A stretch of 44,477 nt of DNA from a phage: assembly GCA_029889005.1 (NCBI GenBank), contig GCA_029889005.1_4349.1; one strand, 5' to 3'. Under the pieces are notes generated by a model. The model was not told where the DNA came from and did no database searches. It was given only the letters and a program-made list of their open reading frames with translations. The translations under genes were made by a program, and so were the position numbers. This document shows, piece after piece, positions 3,922 to 43,172 of the stretch. Position 1 is the first letter of the stretch; each line of letters starts with the position of its first letter.

Positions 3922-4448
3922 GTGGTCAACAGGCCGCGTAATAACGGTATCTCTTTAGGTGTCATCAGTATACCAGTGCTTCGCTGGTTCATCATAGGTG
4001 TACCGACATCCGCGGAGAACTCGCCCTTCTCCTGGTTGATGGCCTGTAACTCGTACACGACAGGACCGTCAGCCGGATAAGACAGGTCTGTGCTGACATA
4101 ACGACGGAAGACGAACTTAGGCAACTCAGTATTGCTCATCGGGATTTTATCCATCTCATCATCCAGTTGATTGAGGATATCCGGTAAAGTAAACGTCGTA
4201 GTCTGGTCCATATCACTGTTGTTAGCCGCTCCCGACGCCTCCATCGGGGTTGGCTCGAATGTTATTGTTTCGCCTGTCTCCAGTGTTGCCGTAAGTTCCT
4301 GTAGCCCGCGCACAAGATAGTACGTCTTCGACAGCAACGGGTGGCTGATTTGCAACGTGACGTAGTCCATCTCGCCGTCGGGATTTGAGGCCAGCTTACG
4401 GCGATAGGCGGCTTCTACTGATTCCTGACTCATTGCATAGGGTCCCAA
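3918..4448 (-). CDS. Minor tail protein
   Basis: 176 aa ORF coupled by overlapping stop/start within the tail module; position only. Confidence 0.4.
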   Translation of the reverse strand: MGPYAMSQESVEAAYRRKLASNPDGEMDYVTLQISHPLLSKTYYLVRGLQELTATLETGETITFEPTPMEASGAANNSDMDQTTTFTLPDILNQLDDEMDKIPMSNTELPKFVFRRYVSTDLSYPADGPVVYELQAINQEKGEFSADVGTPMMNQRSTGILMTPKEIPLLRGLLTT

Positions 4449-7701: not shown

Positions 7702-7809
7702 TCTTTAATCCTTTGGTTAAGAGGTTGTTGGTTAAAGAGAAATGCACCAGGCGGTAACCAACCGCTTTTCGTGCGCGACACTAGGTGCAAAATTATTCTA
7801 ACACACTAC

Positions 7810-7838
7810 TTGCACACCCCAATATAATAGGGTACTAT
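7810..7838 (+). promoter_or_regulatory. Sigma70-like promoter, class A (TTGCAC-N17-TACTAT) with AATAG-N4-CTATT palindrome
   Basis: Hexamers with 17 bp spacer; ~35 bp motif recurs at 17957, 28540(-), 29928(-); downstream ATG 7879. Confidence 0.5.
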
Positions 7839-7878
7839 TCACTTACACCAACGTTATTAACTTAAATAAGGAATTAAA

Positions 7879-10440: not shown

Positions 10441-10470
10441 AAAAAGGCCCCGAAAGGGGCCTTAGTTTTA
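10441..10470. terminator. Bidirectional intrinsic terminator
   Basis: AGGCCCC-GAAA-GGGGCCT hairpin flanked by A-run and T-run between convergent gene ends. Confidence 0.7.
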
Positions 10471-15261: not shown

Positions 15262-15291
15262 AAATGAAAAGAGGGGCCGAAGTCCCCCTCG
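15262..15291 (-). terminator. Intrinsic terminator after major capsid gene
   Basis: GAGGGG ... CCCCTC hairpin followed on minus strand by TTTTCATTT, ~15 nt after capsid stop. Confidence 0.5.
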
Positions 15292-15305: not shown

Positions 15306-16355
15306 TTAAGCACCGACACCAGTTACCAGGAAGGCAATCGGTACGTGCTTGCGGTCAACCACACGGTTCCAGTTGGAGGCGTTCGCCAGGTCCTGCCAGG
15401 AAGCAGAGCGCGGGGTAGTCTCGGTGCCGTTGCCAGTGATTACTGCACTGGTGAAGCTGTAACCAAACGGATGTAGCAACCAGGTCTTACGGGTCCACAG
15501 GGTTTCAACGCCGCCGCCGTTGCCGCGGGACGCTTCGCGCTCGTATTCCAGCGGGTTGGACGGAGAACCTTCACCGTAACCGATAGCGCCGTTGCCGAAG
15601 ATGATGGAGATGAACTTACGGGTCGAGCCAGTGCCGACTACGGTCATGCTGTCGTCAACAATCACGCGGTAGCCCTGGTAGGTGGCGAACATGGTGTTGT
15701 TGTCCGCGTCACGGATGAAGTCGATAAGCTGCTGCTTACGTGCCTGCGCATAAACGAAGCTATGCATCGCGATAGCCCCCAGCACTTCACCGCCGTTGCC
15801 CATCAGAGCATCGCCCATAGTCTGGGTAGCGTCGATGAACGCGCCCGCATCGAAGCCCAGAGTAGCAGACACGTCGATTACCATGTCATTCTGCTCGTGG
15901 TATGCGTCGGTAGCGGCTACGTTGTCGTTGTACAGCCCGAGCGCGGTAGCAATCAGACGGCGTTGTGCCTGACGCTGCCAGAAGTTATCCAGACGTGACG
16001 CTACGGATTGCAGCGGGTTCTGGCTGGTCAGTTCAACGGTCAAATCCGCCTGACCGAAACCTTCGTTCAGGTACGCAACGCGCACCATCATCTCGCCGGT
16101 CTGCACGTTACGCGGGGTGGCGATGTCATGGTATACGTCGTTCGAGTAGTTCGGCTCGATAGAGGTATCAATCGCTTTCCAGAAAGGAATATTAGCGACG
16201 TTGGACGGGCCGCGGGCAATCTCGGCGGCGTATGGGGTCGGGGTGAGAATACCAGACTGGAAGAACGCGGTTTTTTCTACCGGGTCCTCGGTCATATAAG
16301 ACGCCAGGACCGGGATGTTGCCAGTTACGATATCGCCGATAGTGGTAATTGCCAT
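15306..16355 (-). CDS. Major capsid protein
   Basis: 349 aa ORF directly downstream of scaffold-like gene and followed by terminator. Confidence 0.8.
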   Translation of the reverse strand: MAITTIGDIVTGNIPVLASYMTEDPVEKTAFFQSGILTPTPYAAEIARGPSNVANIPFWKAIDTSIEPNYSNDVYHDIATPRNVQTGEMMVRVAYLNEGFGQADLTVELTSQNPLQSVASRLDNFWQRQAQRRLIATALGLYNDNVAATDAYHEQNDMVIDVSATLGFDAGAFIDATQTMGDALMGNGGEVLGAIAMHSFVYAQARKQQLIDFIRDADNNTMFATYQGYRVIVDDSMTVVGTGSTRKFISIIFGNGAIGYGEGSPSNPLEYEREASRGNGGGVETLWTRKTWLLHPFGYSFTSAVITGNGTETTPRSASWQDLANASNWNRVVDRKHVPIAFLVTGVGA

Positions 16356-16357
16356 TA

Positions 16358-17113
16358 TTATTTCCTCAGGGCTTTAAGTTGCCGTTCAAATTCGGCAGGG
16401 TTCGATTTATACAGGGCTAAACGCTCTGCTTCACTCATGTCTTTAAACGCTGGTGCGGCCCCGCCGCCTTTGCTACCGGAAGCCCCGCCGCCGGAAGCTG
16501 CATTTGCTTTGATCAAATGCGAAAACGCCTTGTGTTCGCGCAGGTATTTGCGGAACTGTTCCGGGTCAGTCGTGATTACGTTACCGTCTGCACCAACAAA
16601 CTTAGTAACCACATCATCGCCTTCGAACTCAGTCTTAACGAACGGCGCAAGAATGTCCACTGCTTCTGGGGTAATAAAGTCACCCGCGAAAGAGCCTAGC
16701 ACCGCTTTACGTTCGCTGCCGAGGATACGCTCTGCCATTCTGGAGATGCGACCGTCTTTCTCGGCTAACACCGGGTCATACTGGCTACGAATCGTCTTTT
16801 CGAACTCATCCATCTTACCAGCGGCTTTTAACGCCTCCTGGTGCGCGCGCTGCCGTTCTTCTTCGGCCTCTTTTGCTTTGCGAGCGGCTTCTTTCTTCTC
16901 CGCCAACAATGCTTCCTGATTAGCCTTAAGCCCGGCAACTTCTTTCTCAATCAGCGCCTGAACTTCTTCAGCGGTGAACATTTTCGGCGCGTCACCGCCA
17001 CCAGCTTTATCTTCTGCCCCAGCTTCTTCCTGGAACGGATAACGTAAAAAACGATTCATAGTCAGTATGTCCCCTGGACGTTGGAACCCGGGCCACCCGG
17101 ATTTACATGTCAA
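16358..17113 (-). CDS. Scaffolding protein
   Basis: Charged coiled-coil-like (EEAGAEDK ... KEAEEERQRAHQEALKAAGK) ORF immediately upstream of capsid gene; start may be internal ATG ~17059. Confidence 0.65.
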   Translation of the reverse strand: MTCKSGWPGFQRPGDILTMNRFLRYPFQEEAGAEDKAGGGDAPKMFTAEEVQALIEKEVAGLKANQEALLAEKKEAARKAKEAEEERQRAHQEALKAAGKMDEFEKTIRSQYDPVLAEKDGRISRMAERILGSERKAVLGSFAGDFITPEAVDILAPFVKTEFEGDDVVTKFVGADGNVITTDPEQFRKYLREHKAFSHLIKANAASGGGASGSKGGGAAPAFKDMSEAERLALYKSNPAEFERQLKALRK

Positions 17114-17141: not shown

Positions 17142-17405
17142 CTATTCCAGAATATTCCTCACGTAATCCTGCAACATGAACACTTTCAGTCTCAGTTGCC
17201 GTACACATTCTGCGTTCTGAACGTCGATAGCCAAATCCTCGTCGGCGTCGCTACTTGGCGCTGCCAGTTTGCACGGAGGCTGCATCATCGTCGTATCCGG
17301 TAATGGAATTAGCGTTTGCGACGGCGCGGGACTTGAGCAGGACGCGAGCATCGTCGAAAGTGCACACGCTGCGACCCGGCGTTTTAATGTATTTAACGAC
17401 TTCAC
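17142..17405 (-). CDS. Outer-membrane spanin (Rz1-like lipoprotein)
   Basis: GTG with AGGTGA RBS; signal peptide ending in lipobox LASC, Pro-rich mature part; starts inside the Rz-like gene in another frame and extends past its stop. Confidence 0.6.
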   Translation of the reverse strand: MKSLNTLKRRVAACALSTMLASCSSPAPSQTLIPLPDTTMMQPPCKLAAPSSDADEDLAIDVQNAECVRQLRLKVFMLQDYVRNILE

Positions 17406-17637
17406 GGGTAATCACCTCTGATTTCGTCTTGCCTTCGTTGTCGGCGGCGGCGGCCTTTGATTCGTCCTGCTGCTGCCGTTGTGTTTTCTTCGCTAACTCA
17501 GCCTGCGCTTTCTGCTGTTGCTGCGAAACGAGATTCGCCCGGCCTTCGTGCCAGCCGCTGCGGTACTGATAAATGCCGTGTGTGTAAGCCAGGATGATGA
17601 AACATGCTCCTGCTACGACGGTTGCTTTAAGATTCAT
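17251..17637 (-). CDS. Inner-membrane spanin (Rz-like)
   Basis: Strong AAGGAG RBS; N-terminal transmembrane segment then Gln/Lys/Ala-rich coiled-coil-like region; contains embedded Rz1-like ORF. Confidence 0.6.
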   Translation of the reverse strand: MNLKATVVAGACFIILAYTHGIYQYRSGWHEGRANLVSQQQQKAQAELAKKTQRQQQDESKAAAADNEGKTKSEVITREVVKYIKTPGRSVCTFDDARVLLKSRAVANANSITGYDDDAASVQTGSAK

Positions 17638-17650
17638 GTTTCTCCTTTCT

Positions 17651-17681
17651 CGATAAGTAAAGCCCCGCCTTAAAGCGGGGC
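17651..17681 (-). terminator. Hairpin terminator/attenuator upstream of spanin genes
   Basis: GCCCCGC-CTTAAA-GCGGGGC hairpin followed on minus strand by TTTACTTAT, then RBS of Rz-like gene. Confidence 0.45.
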
Positions 17682-17758
17682 GCTAGTCCTTATCATTTAA
17701 ACATAGAAACGGCGTAATCTAAGTAAACCTGTTACTTTTTACACAAGCAATAGAGTAT

Positions 17759-17890
17759 GGCCCTTCCGAACGCGTCAGCGTAACTACACTCAGGACTTAC
17801 GTCCCGCTCCGTTACCTGCCCGCGCCGCGGTCGCTTGTTCATACTTCACAAGCTCAGGTGGAGCTTAGCACATTTTCAGTGAAAAGTCAA
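17759..17890. repeat. Conserved ~130 bp non-coding element, copy 1
   Basis: Aligns base-for-base over long stretches with 30133..30265 (GGCCCTTCCGAA ... AACTACACTCA ... CCGCGGTCGCTTG ... TCACAAGCTCAG ... AGCTTAGCA ... AAAAGTCAA), with compensatory hairpin changes. Confidence 0.7.
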
Positions 17891-17956
17891 CTATTCGAAT
17901 AGTTTATTCCAATATTTACAATTTAGTGGAATAAATGGAATAGTCTGTATCTGTGC

Positions 17957-17985
17957 TTGCGCGCACCAATATAATAGGGTACTAT
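17957..17985 (+). promoter_or_regulatory. Sigma70-like promoter, class A (TTGCGC-N17-TACTAT)
   Basis: Same ~35 bp motif as 7810..7838; downstream ATG 18014; opposite strand also reads TTGATA-N17-TATATT (possible divergent promoter). Confidence 0.5.
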
Positions 17986-18013
17986 TCAGATATCAAAACG
18001 AGAGGAGAGTGAT

Positions 18014-18226: not shown

Positions 18227-18228
18227 AA

Positions 18229-18256
18229 CTAAGGCCCCATAATGGGGCCTTTTATC
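18229..18256 (+). terminator. Intrinsic terminator
   Basis: AAGGCCCC-ATAAT-GGGGCCTT hairpin then TTTATCATT. Confidence 0.7.
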
Positions 18257-20555: not shown

Positions 20556-20557
20556 AA

Positions 20558-20588
20558 CTAAGGCCCCTAGCGGGGCCTTTCTATTTAC
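20558..20588. terminator. Bidirectional intrinsic terminator
   Basis: AAGGCCCC-TAGC-GGGGCCTT hairpin then TCTATTT; between convergent gene ends. Confidence 0.7.
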
Positions 20589-26160: not shown

Positions 26161-26193
26161 AAAATAAAACCCGGATTCGCGGCCCGGGTTTAT
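26161..26193. terminator. Intrinsic terminator after endolysin gene
   Basis: AACCCGG-N9-CCGGGTT hairpin with T-rich runs on both strands; just downstream of endolysin stop. Confidence 0.65.
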
Positions 26194-28509: not shown

Positions 28510-28539
28510 CTTCTGTCTCTCCTCTCGTCTGTGTAAATG

Positions 28540-28568
28540 AATAGTAGCCTATTCTATCTTAGTGTGCA
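28540..28568 (-). promoter_or_regulatory. Sigma70-like promoter, class A (TTGCAC-N17-TACTAT)
   Basis: Same motif as 7810..7838 in minus orientation, ~30 nt upstream of 28509 start. Confidence 0.5.
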
Positions 28569-28727
28569 AGTAAATTTTATTGGTGTTTGTATTGTTGCAT
28601 TTCCTGCAATAGTCGCTTCGATTGTTGCGTTTGATGAAAGTGTCGCCTTTTGACGACACTAAGTTAAAGTTGTACGCTGCTGTGTAGCAGCGTAAGTCAC
28701 TCAGTAAAATCCCAAACTATTGACCTG

Positions 28728-29689: not shown

Positions 29690-29893
29690 TTATTTAAAGT
29701 AGATAGCAAATTTCTTGTAACCCGCTGGCTCGTTACGAAGTCCTTTACCGTTAGCGAAACGTTGTACGTTAACAAAATCATTTTCATCCATCCCGTCGGT
29801 GTCGAACGTAAAGAAGTTGCGCTTGTTCCCGATAATTACGCGCTCAGAGATATCGATGCCGTAAACTTCTTTGATTGCGGTCGCTTTGTTCAT
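29690..29893 (-). CDS. Hypothetical early protein
   Basis: 67 aa, first gene after class A promoter at 29928..29956. Confidence 0.4.
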   Translation of the reverse strand: MNKATAIKEVYGIDISERVIIGNKRNFFTFDTDGMDENDFVNVQRFANGKGLRNEPAGYKKFAIYFK

Positions 29894-29927
29894 TTCTAAA
29901 TTCCTTATGTCTCGTTCCGATAAGTGA

Positions 29928-29956
29928 ATAGTATCCTATTATGTTGGGGTGTGCAA
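29928..29956 (-). promoter_or_regulatory. Sigma70-like promoter, class A (TTGCAC-N17-TACTAT)
   Basis: Motif CTTGCACACCCCAACATAATAGGATACTATTCAC in minus orientation ~35 nt upstream of 29893 start. Confidence 0.5.
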
Positions 29957-30132
29957 GATAATAGTTACGTTGCCGTTGTGATTCTTTTGTTTCTTAAAAG
30001 AGTACGCAACGCAGTGGGTGGGCTAACGCCCACCCCAGCGGAGTGAAGTACTCTCTACCTTGCTTACGGCAACTATAGAAACTTTTAATTATCAGTGACT
30101 TGAGTATTTAGGCGGGATTAACAATAGACTTT

Positions 30133-30265
30133 GGCCCTTCCGAAAGCGCCAGCGGAACTACACTCAAGTGCCTAATGGCACGCGTTGCGTTCCCTGCCGC
30201 TCCGCGGTCGCTTGCGATATCTCACAAGCTCAGTGAAGCTTAGCATATTTTTAAGTAAAAGTCAA
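30133..30265. repeat. Conserved ~130 bp non-coding element, copy 2
   Basis: Homologous to 17759..17890; contains GTGCC-TAAT-GGCAC and AAGCT-CAGTG-AAGCTT hairpins. Confidence 0.7.
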
Positions 30266-30312
30266 TACCAGTAGCATCTTTTGTATTTTAGTAACTTTGC
30301 GTGGTGTTTTGG

Positions 30313-30341
30313 TTGCTTTTACATTCACGCTATCCTATACT
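30313..30341 (+). promoter_or_regulatory. Sigma70-like promoter (TTGCTT-N17-TATACT)
   Basis: Hexamers with 17 bp spacer ~30 nt upstream of 30373 ATG. Confidence 0.45.
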
Positions 30342-30372
30342 CGTTTTCACCAAACAAACAGGAGATATAAAA

Positions 30373-30555
30373 ATGCAGCATTACATGACACAGAATGAAG
30401 TGGCTGAACGTATCGGGGTGACACGTCAAACCATTAATAACTGGTTGCGCAGCGGTAAATTCCCTGATTGCTGTATTAAGGTTATGGGTCGCCGTTTACC
30501 AGGAACATTTGACCGTAATAAAGTTGAAGCGTGGATTAAGGAGAACGTGAAATGA
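30373..30555 (+). CDS. Small HTH DNA-binding protein (AlpA/Xis-like)
   Basis: AGGAGA RBS; TQNEVAERIGVTRQTINNWLRSGKFP helix-turn-helix; start at internal ATG of track ORF 30301..30555. Confidence 0.5.
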   Translation: MQHYMTQNEVAERIGVTRQTINNWLRSGKFPDCCIKVMGRRLPGTFDRNKVEAWIKENVK

Positions 30556-33750: not shown

Positions 33751-33814
33751 GTCAATTACTCCTTAGTCAGTTGATATGTGAATAGTACCATATTAATTAT
33801 TTTAGAAAAGCCCA

Positions 33815-33843
33815 TTGACACGTGAATAGTTCGCTATTATAGT
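33815..33843 (+). promoter_or_regulatory. Sigma70-like promoter, class B (TTGACA-N17-TATAGT) with GAATAG-N4-CTAT palindrome in spacer
   Basis: Consensus -35, 17 bp spacer containing TGAATAGTTCGCTAT; second palindrome copy ~33777..33801. Confidence 0.55.
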
Positions 33844-33871
33844 TAACCCATACCAAACGAGAGGGGCAGAT

Positions 33872-36169: not shown

Positions 36170-36369
36170 TTCAAGTAAATGAAATGCCGACTGATAAAGA
36201 TTTTTTGATGGTATGGCGCTGGGATGGGTATCTACACTCGGAATCGTTCACGTTCTTGAACGGTACCATGATGCGATACGACCATGTGGAGGATGAATTC
36301 GAACCCGTTGATATGAATGATTTCGAGATCATAATCCCTATTGCAAAATTTTATTTGACACATGAATAG
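36136..36369 (+). CDS. Hypothetical protein
   Basis: Likely start ATG ~36166 with AGAGGAGG RBS overlapping nuclease stop. Confidence 0.4.
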   Translation: MESGYRGGFRMIQVNEMPTDKDFLMVWRWDGYLHSESFTFLNGTMMRYDHVEDEFEPVDMNDFEIIIPIAKFYLTHE

Positions 36370-36383
36370 TTAGCTATTATAGT
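36355..36383 (+). promoter_or_regulatory. Sigma70-like promoter, class B (TTGACA-N17-TATAGT)
   Basis: Spacer CATGAATAGTTAGCTAT contains the GAATAG-N4-CTAT palindrome; ~70 nt upstream of 36452 ATG. Confidence 0.55.
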
Positions 36384-36451
36384 TCTAATCACTGGCCGGG
36401 CAGCTTCCCGGAGTAAACTTTGAAATATAAACTGAAAAGCGAGAAATCACG

Positions 36452-37078: not shown

Positions 37079-37095
37079 TATCTGAATCAATTTAA

Positions 37096-37122
37096 CTAAG
37101 GCCCTTCATTGGGCCTTTTTAC
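37096..37122 (+). terminator. Intrinsic terminator
   Basis: AAGGCCC-TTCATT-GGGCCTT hairpin followed by TTT. Confidence 0.6.
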
Positions 37123-40567: not shown

Positions 40568-40852
40568 ATGACCCCGGAAGGCAAGATTCAGAAATACGCA
40601 AAAGAGCAATTCGAGGCCATTGGCGGCCTCGTTCGTAAACTTTCGTACGAGGGGCGCTCCGGCGCCCCTGACCTGCTGGTAATTCTCCCCGGCGGCATCG
40701 TCTGGTTCGTCGAGGTTAAGAAAGACGAAAACACGAAGCCAGACCCGCACCAGTTACGTGAGCATGAGCGGATGCGTAAACGCGGTGCAAATGTTTTTGT
40801 CGTTGGTTCGTTTAAACAGGTTGACGACCTAATAGCAAACTATTATAGTTAG
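40568..40852 (+). CDS. VRR-NUC domain nuclease
   Basis: GAPDLLVIL ... WFVEVK PD-(D/E)XK-type motif in a 94 aa protein. Confidence 0.7.
   Translation: MTPEGKIQKYAKEQFEAIGGLVRKLSYEGRSGAPDLLVILPGGIVWFVEVKKDENTKPDPHQLREHERMRKRGANVFVVGSFKQVDDLIANYYS
40821..40849 (+). promoter_or_regulatory. Sigma70-like promoter, class B (TTGACG-N17-TATAGT)
   Basis: Lies in 3' end of VRR-NUC gene; predicted leader ACACCAAC ... TAAGGAATT ... ATG matches leader of 7879 gene. Confidence 0.5.
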
Positions 40853-43142: not shown

Positions 43143-43172
43143 GAAAAGGCCCCGTTTGGGGCCTTAGTTTAT
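43143..43172. terminator. Bidirectional intrinsic terminator
   Basis: AAGGCCCC-GTTT-GGGGCCTT hairpin with T-runs on both strands between convergent gene ends. Confidence 0.7.

Follow-up and report, generated by a model that had tools for sequence, protein, structure and literature searches.

A conserved structured RNA behind two extended -10 promoters of a Kagunavirus-like phage

To our knowledge, essentially one system is known in which a nascent RNA controls RNA polymerase in a factor-independent way, the put RNA of phage HK022. Without phage proteins, put RNA suppresses pausing and termination, and mutations in the β′ zinc-binding domain block this activity. Its two forms, putL and putR, are structured phage RNAs that act in cis and cause factor-independent antitermination (PMC9378689). 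Here, we report a structured RNA element that occurs twice in a stretch of phage DNA of 44,477 nucleotides (contig GCA_029889005.1_4349.1; this whole stretch is called the window below), which by its sequence appears to be the complete genome, ~44.5 kb, of a Kagunavirus-like E. coli phage of the Guernseyvirinae. The element consists of a short hairpin (P1), a long irregular hairpin or rod (P2) and a single-stranded tail, and both copies stand directly behind a promoter of the sigma70 type. It has in common with HK022 put that a structured RNA lies near the start of long operons transcribed from a sigma70 promoter, in two diverged copies in one genome with one per operon, that hairpins meet at a conserved junction with terminators downstream, and that a -10-like element is found in the early transcribed region while no dedicated antiterminator protein is recognisable (PMC9378689). 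The two differ in size, with P1 of 13-21 nt, P2 of ~65 nt and the tail in the element versus two stems in ~70 nt in put, and in the carrier, which is a virulent Guernseyvirinae phage here and a temperate lambdoid phage in the case of put.

The late leader of lambda (PR′, qut, 6S RNA and tR′, with Q) was also compared, as were Q21, Q82 and AlpA of Pseudomonas aeruginosa with PalpB-tB. The element shares with the lambda leader a constitutive-looking sigma70 promoter with a -10-like repeat around +1 (PMC9371919), a non-coding stretch up to an intrinsic terminator (about 175-195 nt at copy 1, 194 nt in lambda) and the order of terminator, then directly lysis genes, then morphogenesis genes. In the Q and AlpA systems, however, a protein bound to the DNA builds a nozzle within the RNA exit channel, with no need for a conserved RNA fold, whereas the fold of the element covaries. 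With lambda N/nut (boxA-boxB) and the rrn boxB-boxA-boxC arrangement the element shares a promoter-proximal hairpin and a conserved linear motif; boxB is a hairpin of 15 nt compared with ~65 nt for P2, no N-like arginine-rich protein was seen, and the apical loops of the element differ between copies of one genome. Its tail, (A/G)(C/G/U)UCUAUUG, loosely recalls what we take to be boxA, GCUCUUUA, at 6-7 of 9 positions, a likeness that is not statistically supported, and CTCTATTG is not enriched. As a structured intergenic non-coding RNA of 100-200 nt, the element also resembles phage and bacterial RNAs in Rfam (C4 antisense RNA, IsrK, EAR, 6S, YrlA, riboswitches), but no family of Rfam 15 reaches its gathering threshold anywhere in the window, and matches in the two regions at E values up to 10 are at chance level, none meaningfully overlapping the fold. 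An Rfam search had been proposed as a check in the initial annotation of this DNA, which was made from the letters alone; it returns no known family. We conclude that the RNA belongs to no described family and would work like a known kind of element.

A covarying minus-strand RNA in two copies

The initial annotation described two diverged copies with long identical blocks, each in a non-coding region of 375-400 bp. The sequence features it named can all be read at the positions it gave. The duplication is borne out, as the minus strands of 17748-17890 and 30122-30265 align over ~145 nt with 78.9% identity (BLAST E = 9e-26), and a repeat search of the window reports the same pair (family D7). 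The size of the surroundings holds for copy 1, which lies in a divergent non-coding region of 376 bp (17638-18013), but not for copy 2, whose divergent non-coding region measures 480 bp (29894-30373). When every position of the window was scored with a covariance model, exactly two copies of the ~115-nt element were found, both on the minus strand: copy 1 at 17747-17861 with 137.7 bits and copy 2 at 30121-30237 with 105.1 bits. The third-best match in the window reaches 9.2 bits only.

In copy 1, P1 (17833..17853, minus) is formed by GCUUGU and ACAAGC around the loop GAAGUAUGA, and P2 (17766..17830, minus) is an irregular rod of 65 nt, seen both in single-sequence folds and in the alignment. 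From the base upward, P2 pairs CCG-C-GGCGCG with CGCGUU-CGG and, in the middle, CAG.GUAAC with GUUAC.CUG; the tip has an asymmetric internal loop (GGAG / AGUGUA) and then the apical stem CGGGAC-GUAA-GUCCUG. The single-stranded tail (17748..17765, minus) runs from AAGGGCC (17765..17759) through AUA to CUCUAUUG (17755..17748). Copy 2 has a P1 of 8 bp (30210..30229, minus; GCUUGUGA, loop GAUA, UCGCAAGC), a P2 (30140..30207, minus) whose interior differs, with GGAAC/GUUCC and the apical stem GUGCC-AUUA-GGCAC, and a tail (30122..30139, minus) of AAGGGCC (30139..30133), AAA and GUCUAUUG (30129..30122). The linker between P1 and P2 is GA. Single-sequence folding gives the same fold for both copies, and the folding energies are mildly unusual only (z = -2.2 and -3.3 on the minus strand versus -1.7 and -2.0 on the plus strand). 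Across the family, P2 (65-68 nt) has at its base CCG/CGG, a bulged C, GGNGCG/CGCNUU with two G-U pairs, and CAG/CUG, followed by GUAAC/GUUAC or GGAAC/GUUCC, an asymmetric purine-rich internal loop and a variable apical stem; the tail, AAGGGCC, 3 nt and (C/G)UCUAUUG, is nearly invariant in all types. The conserved fold thus defined covers about 95-115 nt and is followed by a less conserved stretch of 80-100 nt up to a GC hairpin.

Evidence for the fold comes from related phages, collected by two IMG/VR pattern scans and from GenBank genomes. In a model-based alignment (A4) of 31 distinct sequences with 28 pairs and 826 pair cells, 94.2% of the cells are standard pairs, compared with 27-40% when the partners are slid by 1-3 columns. 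In ten of the 28 pairs, all in P2, both partners have changed with pairing retained, a single position showing as many as five pair types, and none of 500 shuffles reached the observed covariation score; an earlier set of 22 sequences gave the same picture. Please note that the shuffle control overstates the significance, because the 31 sequences fall into about six lineages; the slid controls and the multiple pair types are independent of the lineage structure. In P1, all 6 pairs are kept in every sequence, and the sole variation is from U-A to U-G. The compensatory change proposed in the initial annotation, GGAC-TTAC-GTCC in one copy and GTGCC-TAAT-GGCAC in the other, corresponds to the apical stem of P2, for which the relatives supply at least four further stem sequences; the covariance alignment suggested there as a check finds the paired substitutions conserved among the 31 sequences. 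The strand is decided by 103 G-U cells, since the same helices on the plus strand would pair at 82.4% only. Judged by these substitutions, the RNA fold is under selection and the minus strand is settled as the one from which the RNA would be made, in line with the structured minus-strand RNA or leader that had been suggested.

An open reading frame of 36 codons (17842..17732, minus) over copy 1 was considered as a gene and rejected. Copy 2 lacks it, and 1-nt indels disrupt it in the relatives L004, L006, L010 and L016, so the conservation is not coding. Some GenBank records do annotate a "hypothetical protein" of 36-39 codons over the element (L037, 1593-1709; L038, 6328-6438; L066, 268-387).

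The instances fall into several types. The copy 1 site is occupied by type A in 181 records, from Kagunavirus and some Jerseyvirus, and by type E in 269 Jerseyvirus records; A2 is a variant of type A whose apical stem differs. Type B is copy 2 of the window. In other Kagunaviruses, the copy 2 sites have types C, C2 and D, and L043 has type D at its copy 1 site. BLAST with a type A query does not see type E, which the model matches at 38-49 bits. Types A-D have two hairpins, P1 of 20-21 nt and P2 of 65-68 nt, with GA between them. In type E, P1 is cut to GCU-UUC-AGC (or ACGCU-UUC-AGCGU), 3-5 bp, which abuts or overlaps the predicted transcription start. Because P1 shrinks in this way, the universal core consists of P2 and the tail.

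Promoters with a repeated -10 hexamer

The sequence TTGACT-N17-TAAGCT, noticed early as the opening of both copies on the minus strand, is present in both, with each -10 after TGn. The promoter of copy 1 (17862..17890, minus) has its -35 TTGACT at 17890..17885 and its -10 TAAGCT at 17867..17862, and that of copy 2 (30237..30265, minus) has the same hexamers at 30265..30260 and 30242..30237; in both, the spacer is 17 nt and ends in TGC, an extended -10. The predicted start, 7 nt past the -10, is a G at ~17855 for copy 1 and an A at ~30230 for copy 2, and the two promoters would be expected to fire at about these positions. A generic promoter scanner misses the copy 1 promoter because its -10 matches TATAAT at 3 of 6 positions only. 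Among 69 tabulated instances of the family, the -35 is T(T/A)GA(C/T)T, the -10 is TA(A/C)GCT, TGn always precedes the -10, and the spacer is 17 nt throughout, apart from a single record flagged as unverified. Between the -10 and the start region lie 3-5 nt that vary, and the conserved RNA begins within a few nucleotides of the predicted start.

The -10 hexamer is repeated around the predicted start. In copy 1, the near-repeat TGAGCT (17851..17856, minus) lies at about -1..+5 and is a candidate sigma70-dependent pause element. Types A-D have TAAGCT, 4-5 nt and TGAGCT (overlapping frame GAGCTT) at about -1..+6, and type E has an exact repeat, TACGCT, 3 nt and TACGCT, at about -3..+3. Since the repeat changes together with the -10, both would be seen by the same reader, sigma70 region 2. 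In lambda PR′ the sigma70 pause element is found in a similar area around +1. In PalpB, the AlpA-controlled promoter, a -10-like sigma70 pause element is located at -1..+5 (PMC9371919), and putL has a weaker -10-like element further downstream, at +23..+28 (PMC9378689). The initially transcribed region of the element thus appears, by its sequence, to contain the -10-like element that a promoter of the Q/AlpA type requires, and by analogy the repeated hexamer may serve as a promoter-proximal sigma70 pause element.

A further inverted repeat, AAGCTC-N5-GAGCTT, had been taken for a hairpin preserved by paired changes. The inverted repeat is real; it is invariant and shows no covariation. It is probably no RNA helix, because the -10 hexamer makes up its 5′ arm and the predicted start marks the beginning of its 3′ arm, and as a whole it is probably not transcribed and lies outside the RNA fold. 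The spacers of copies 1 and 2 hold a T4-N5-A4 dyad. On the upstream side, a perfect 16-bp palindrome, AACTATTCGAATAGTT (17891-17906), abuts the -35 of copy 1, with several GGAATA/TATTCC repeats beyond it within 17891-17945. The palindrome is positioned like an activator site for the promoter of the capsid operon; it is partial in type E and absent at copy 2.

Operon context and spread in the Guernseyvirinae

A GC-rich hairpin ~200 nt downstream, also part of the first description, is found at both copies, about 175-215 nt on (17681..17662 and ~30036..30016). The 3′ half of the copy 1 leader (17652..17747, minus) ends in an intrinsic terminator with the stem GCCCCGC-UUUAAG-GCGGGGC (17681..17662) and the tail UUUACUUAUC; it has 8 pairs, 7 of them G-C, followed by UUUACUU, and the stem ends 25 nt before the start codon of Rz (17637). 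Its stem, CCCCGC/GCGGGG, equals what we take to be the stem of the E. coli type I-E CRISPR (clustered regularly interspaced short palindromic repeats) repeat; mimicry was considered and the match treated as chance, as the loop and flanks differ and the type E hairpin is unmatched. The 3′ half of the copy 2 leader (30016..30121, minus) ends in the hairpin GGGGUGGGC-GUUA-GCCCACCC at about 30036..30016, which has no U tract, and the terminator scan reports no site in 30016..30121. The downstream hairpins of the different types are unrelated, in contrast to the constant core. Just before the GGUGCC-UUCG-GCACC hairpin, the 3′ half of type C copy 2 leaders has a (CTCA)n microsatellite of 3-7 units (L039, about 4290-4330; L108, 2300-2320; also L044, L050 and L053).

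Gene identities were taken from the annotated relatives fBC-Eco01, Schulenburg and Ent1. On the minus strand, copy 1 is followed by Rz (i-spanin) with Rz1 (o-spanin) embedded (17637..17251), scaffold (17113..16358) and major capsid (16355..15306), and then by neck and tail tube genes. The gene upstream of copy 1 is divergent, no consensus minus-strand promoter is found over the next 6 kb, and a further terminator follows the capsid gene (15290..15271). From the divergent neighbor, these terminators and the lack of another consensus promoter, capsid transcripts probably start at the copy 1 promoter and cross both terminators; with the hairpin 25 nt before Rz and no promoter between, the copy 1 RNA would be, when expressed, the physical 5′ end of the capsid operon mRNA. 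Copy 2 is followed on the minus strand by small early genes, then holin and endolysin, and later by more small genes, terminase, portal, head morphogenesis and decoration genes, and its unit extends past a terminator behind the endolysin gene (26191..26167) as far as terminase and portal. By these coordinates the copies appear to be placed as put is, between a promoter and the downstream terminators at 17681..17662, 15290..15271 and 26191..26167.

Outside the RNA element, a second promoter past copy 2 (29928..29956, minus), TTGCAC-N17-TACTAT enclosing an AATAG-N4-CTATT palindrome, precedes the first small early gene (ATG at 29893). It belongs to a promoter/operator family, TTGCAC-N17-TACTAT or TTGACA-N17-TATAGT with AATAG-N4-CTATT between the hexamers, that is found 20-40 nt before early and replication genes at 7809-7845 (+), 17956-17988 (+), 28526-28572 (-) and 29921-29957 (-), with further plus-strand sites at 33771-33800, 33815-33844, 36355-36384 and 40821-40850; these look like operators of a phage repressor or Cro-like regulator (repeat families D1, D10, I1-I3 and I12). 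Near-identical, often bidirectional terminators, AAAAGGCCCC-N4-GGGGCCTTAGTTT, mark the ends of convergent transcription units at 10442-10468, 18227-18254, 20556-20584, 37094-37121 and 43144-43170 (repeat families D3, D4 and I5-I10). In phages that lack copy 2 (L055, L056, L057 and L068), other non-coding leaders of 260-350 nt occupy its site (L055, 36256-36560; L056, 35880-36190; L057, 34430-34700). Those of L055 and L056 start at TTGACA-N17-TAAGTT or TAAGGT, and the -10 hexamer TAAGTT of L055 recurs ~34 nt after the -10; the L057 promoter appears different. The leaders of L055-L057 end in a canonical terminator, GGGCAGG..CCTGCCC-TTTAGTT, and share the 3′ motifs GCCGUAGAUUCGC and AAGUWWCUGA with the leaders studied here; they may be analogous RNAs.

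In a BLAST search of phage records with both regions, 181 Guernseyvirinae records (Kagunavirus and Jerseyvirus) were matched, with E. coli, Salmonella and Raoultella as hosts. There are 457 records with a capsid protein at least 90% identical, and types A and E together (181 + 269) cover essentially all of them, so all members of the subfamily appear to have the element ahead of Rz. The second copy is found in ~43 of the 181 type-A records and in none of the 269 type-E records. P2 interiors swap loci, as type D occupies the copy 1 site in L043 and, in L046, L049 and L054, the copy 2 site, so the copies would be functionally equivalent modules. Conservation is extreme. Measured in 100-nt steps, identity to the Jerseyvirus Kenya-K1 is 90-98% over the copy 1 leader versus 61-94% for the Rz, scaffold and capsid genes, and the segment 17651-17850 ranks 2nd of 886 200-nt segments of the genome in identity to a Jerseyvirus (96.5%). 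The P1 base, the junction, basal P2, the internal loop and the tail are near-invariant across E. coli, Salmonella and Raoultella phages.

In bacteria, the element core had no match in 5,426 E. coli genomes, and a degenerate pattern run over 185,579 species genomes gave 90 loci, of which the model accepted one (98 bits). This locus (L108; JAEWLW010000073.1, 6,220 bp) is a type C2 element filed under a "Bacillota bacterium" metagenome-assembled genome. There, the early promoter comes after the element, and then the beginning of the first early gene (MNKA...), as after copy 2 of the window, and by its sequence the contig is almost certainly a mis-binned Kagunavirus contig. A 20-bit model match among the pattern loci lies inside a coding region of a genome with 72% GC and was rejected. 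As far as these genomes tell, the family is confined to the Guernseyvirinae.

Possible action on RNA polymerase and competing explanations

We tentatively favor the reading that the element is a cis-acting 5′ leader RNA that controls transcription elongation, through anti-pausing or antitermination of the put or Q kind. The element would be the head of a transcription unit, in which an extended -10 promoter for host sigma70 is fused to a structured 5′ leader (P1, P2 and tail). The leader RNA would be made first on both long leftward transcripts and, while nascent, would act in cis on its own transcribing RNA polymerase, where a sigma70 pause close to the promoter, at the repeated -10 hexamer, may assist; the polymerase so modified would resist pausing and termination and would pass the hairpin or terminator of the leader and the internal terminators of the operon. 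We infer the action in cis and the elongation complex as target. The copies differ in apical P2 and share a near-invariant base, junction and tail, and therefore the partner would recognise the base and would itself be highly conserved; the best candidates are the host RNA polymerase or its (Nus) factors, and a conserved phage protein could also serve. In Pfam and PHROGs scans covering 17 candidate proteins encoded near the elements, no Q, N or AlpA-like antiterminator matched, and none is annotated in the carefully annotated relative Schulenburg, which fits, weakly, an RNA that is factor-independent. That the element represents a second, sequence-unrelated class of nascent RNA that reprograms the E. 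coli or Salmonella RNA polymerase without a phage protein, as put does, or an RNA that takes part in host takeover in an entirely new way, is a narrower proposal that we hold to be rather doubtful.

Several observations weigh against an action of the put or Q kind. With the putL sequence taken from NC_002166 via a published primer and the HK022 early region represented by L058 and L059 (~11 kb), model R1 run with filters off gave no match at putL or elsewhere in this region; the best R1 match there has 6.0 bits (E = 7.6) and lies away from putL, putR not being separately located. A homology to put drawn by eye (5′ strand CGCGGCG..GG..CAGG..AACGG) was rejected as a GC-rich coincidence, since the 3′ strands do not correspond and the model search was empty. 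Compared with put, type E is nearly without P1 and most members are single-copy; the near loss of P1 suggests that a two-hairpin architecture like that of put is not conserved, and as most relatives lack copy 2, that copy is dispensable. The near-repeat TGAGCT is without the A at position 2 that sigma70 needs, and A2 together with T6 is found in the overlapping frame GAGCTT only. A terminator shortly before late genes, a trait of the Q/AlpA systems, is canonical only in type A at copy 1; the hairpins of types B and E are without a U tract, and that of type C is flagged by the scanner with a weak, T-rich tail interrupted by C/G, so read-through of a leader terminator cannot be the universal task. 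The genes 3′ of copy 2 have their own promoter (29928..29956), and the tail operon (7701 to 998, minus) is without an element copy, as the covariance-model scan of the whole window found neither a third copy nor one ahead of this operon. Lastly, the literature searched for transcript maps of Kagunavirus and Jerseyvirus offers one time course only, at the level of coding sequences and with no intergenic information. As to the tail operon itself, it begins in a short divergent region (7702-7878) without a consensus minus-strand promoter.

Two other roles for the RNA have to be weighed, both of which we consider unlikely. The leader may be a docking site for a phage or host RNA-binding protein (e.g., of the RNase III type) that controls mRNA processing, stability or translation, including a variant like lambda N/nut. 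The basal helix, the junction, the internal loop (G-N-A-R-C opposite R-G-Y-G-U-A-R) and the tail are conserved in sequence while the apical stem keeps pairing only, a combination typical of protein-recognised RNAs, and a hairpin from +3 could shield the 5′ end. Long irregular hairpins of this kind resemble the RNase III sites of phages T7 and lambda, the terminal hairpins of types B-E are not canonical terminators, and many small phage proteins of unassigned function lie outside the 17 scanned. However, neither these 17 proteins nor the annotations contain an RNA-binding or N-like protein, the apical parts differ between copies of one genome, unlike the boxB of nutL and nutR, and a stability element alone needs neither ~200 nt of near-invariant sequence nor a promoter with a repeated -10. 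Comparably unlikely, in our estimate, is a stand-alone small RNA gene of ~195-215 nt that acts in trans (e.g., by sequestering a host protein or in anti-defence), its position in the operon being incidental. Both units would then have their own promoter and a terminal GC hairpin ~200 nt on, as is seen, and the independent promoter for the genes after copy 2, the conservation of 90-98% over the whole 200 nt of copy 1 beyond the fold, and the other ~300-nt non-coding units with the terminator GGGCAGG..CCUGCCC-UUUAGUU in phages without copy 2 agree with it. What speaks against a small RNA is that the copy 1 RNA, with no promoter between its hairpin and Rz, would head the capsid operon mRNA, and that the hairpin of 269 type-E phages has no U tract. 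Sites complementary to the tail (GGCCCTTCC) are also not in excess in the phage genome (10 versus 8.0 +/- 3.2 expected), and the 5,426 E. coli genomes hold no core match, which tests for host copies of the element and not for short antisense targets.

It is improbable, in our view, that the functional unit is the DNA, i.e., a late promoter of the Q/AlpA type at which a phage protein binds beside the promoter hexamers or between them and loads onto polymerase paused at the repeated -10, with the RNA fold being secondary. Such a promoter would account for the hexamer repeat at about -3..+5, as at lambda PR′ and PalpB, for the T4-N5-A4 dyad kept in both spacers, for the perfect palindrome abutting the -35 of copy 1, and for the terminator ~175 nt downstream, after which lysis and structural genes come as they do in the lambda late operon; an early protein of 60 amino acids with HTH_17/phrog_66 is encoded beside copy 2. 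It leaves unexplained the 10 covarying RNA pairs, the conserved G-U pairs and the strand asymmetry, and no Q-family protein was found among the 17 scanned proteins near the elements or in the Schulenburg annotation. An AlpA-like role for the 60-residue protein was considered and rejected, as its only matches are to HTH_17/phrog_66, neither AlpA nor Q is matched in the PDB, and it is too short for the N-terminal ring-forming segment of AlpA (PMC9371919). Very improbable is a riboswitch or attenuator, in which the fold would sense a ligand or the ribosome and toggle between P2 and a small terminator hairpin, UUCGG-AAGGG-CCNAN, with a U-rich stretch. The 3′ strand of the P2 base is indeed able, in types C and E, to form a hairpin of 5-6 bp with U-rich sequence after it, flagged by the scanner in Schulenburg, and the conserved AAGGG-N10-UUG could start a mini-ORF (open reading frame). 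The alternative tail hairpin, however, is paired in 71% of the cells, with 388 of 500 shuffles reaching its score, far weaker than P2; the mini-ORFs have 1 to 10 codons and no conserved peptide, with the UUG lost in L053 and L066; the downstream hairpins vary between types over a constant core; and no bacterial genome in either survey has the element, the sole real match being the mis-binned phage contig.

Whatever the mechanism, the element stands for an RNA family that has gone unannotated and that ranks with the most conserved parts of Guernseyvirinae genomes. This subfamily includes the Jersey-like Salmonella phages and K1-type coliphages, which are widely used in biocontrol and therapy. 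If the element is indeed a class of RNA like put, it would be the first in virulent phages, present in ~450 sequenced phages of the therapeutic type; a second, unrelated RNA that modifies RNA polymerase would reveal general features of such RNAs, and it would be a new handle on the RNA exit channel of the polymerase and the surface of its zinc-binding domain. Located where capsid expression starts, the element is relevant to phage engineering and to annotation, in which a bogus ORF of 36-38 codons is placed over it, and to the timing of late genes in phages that have neither their own polymerase nor a known antiterminator.

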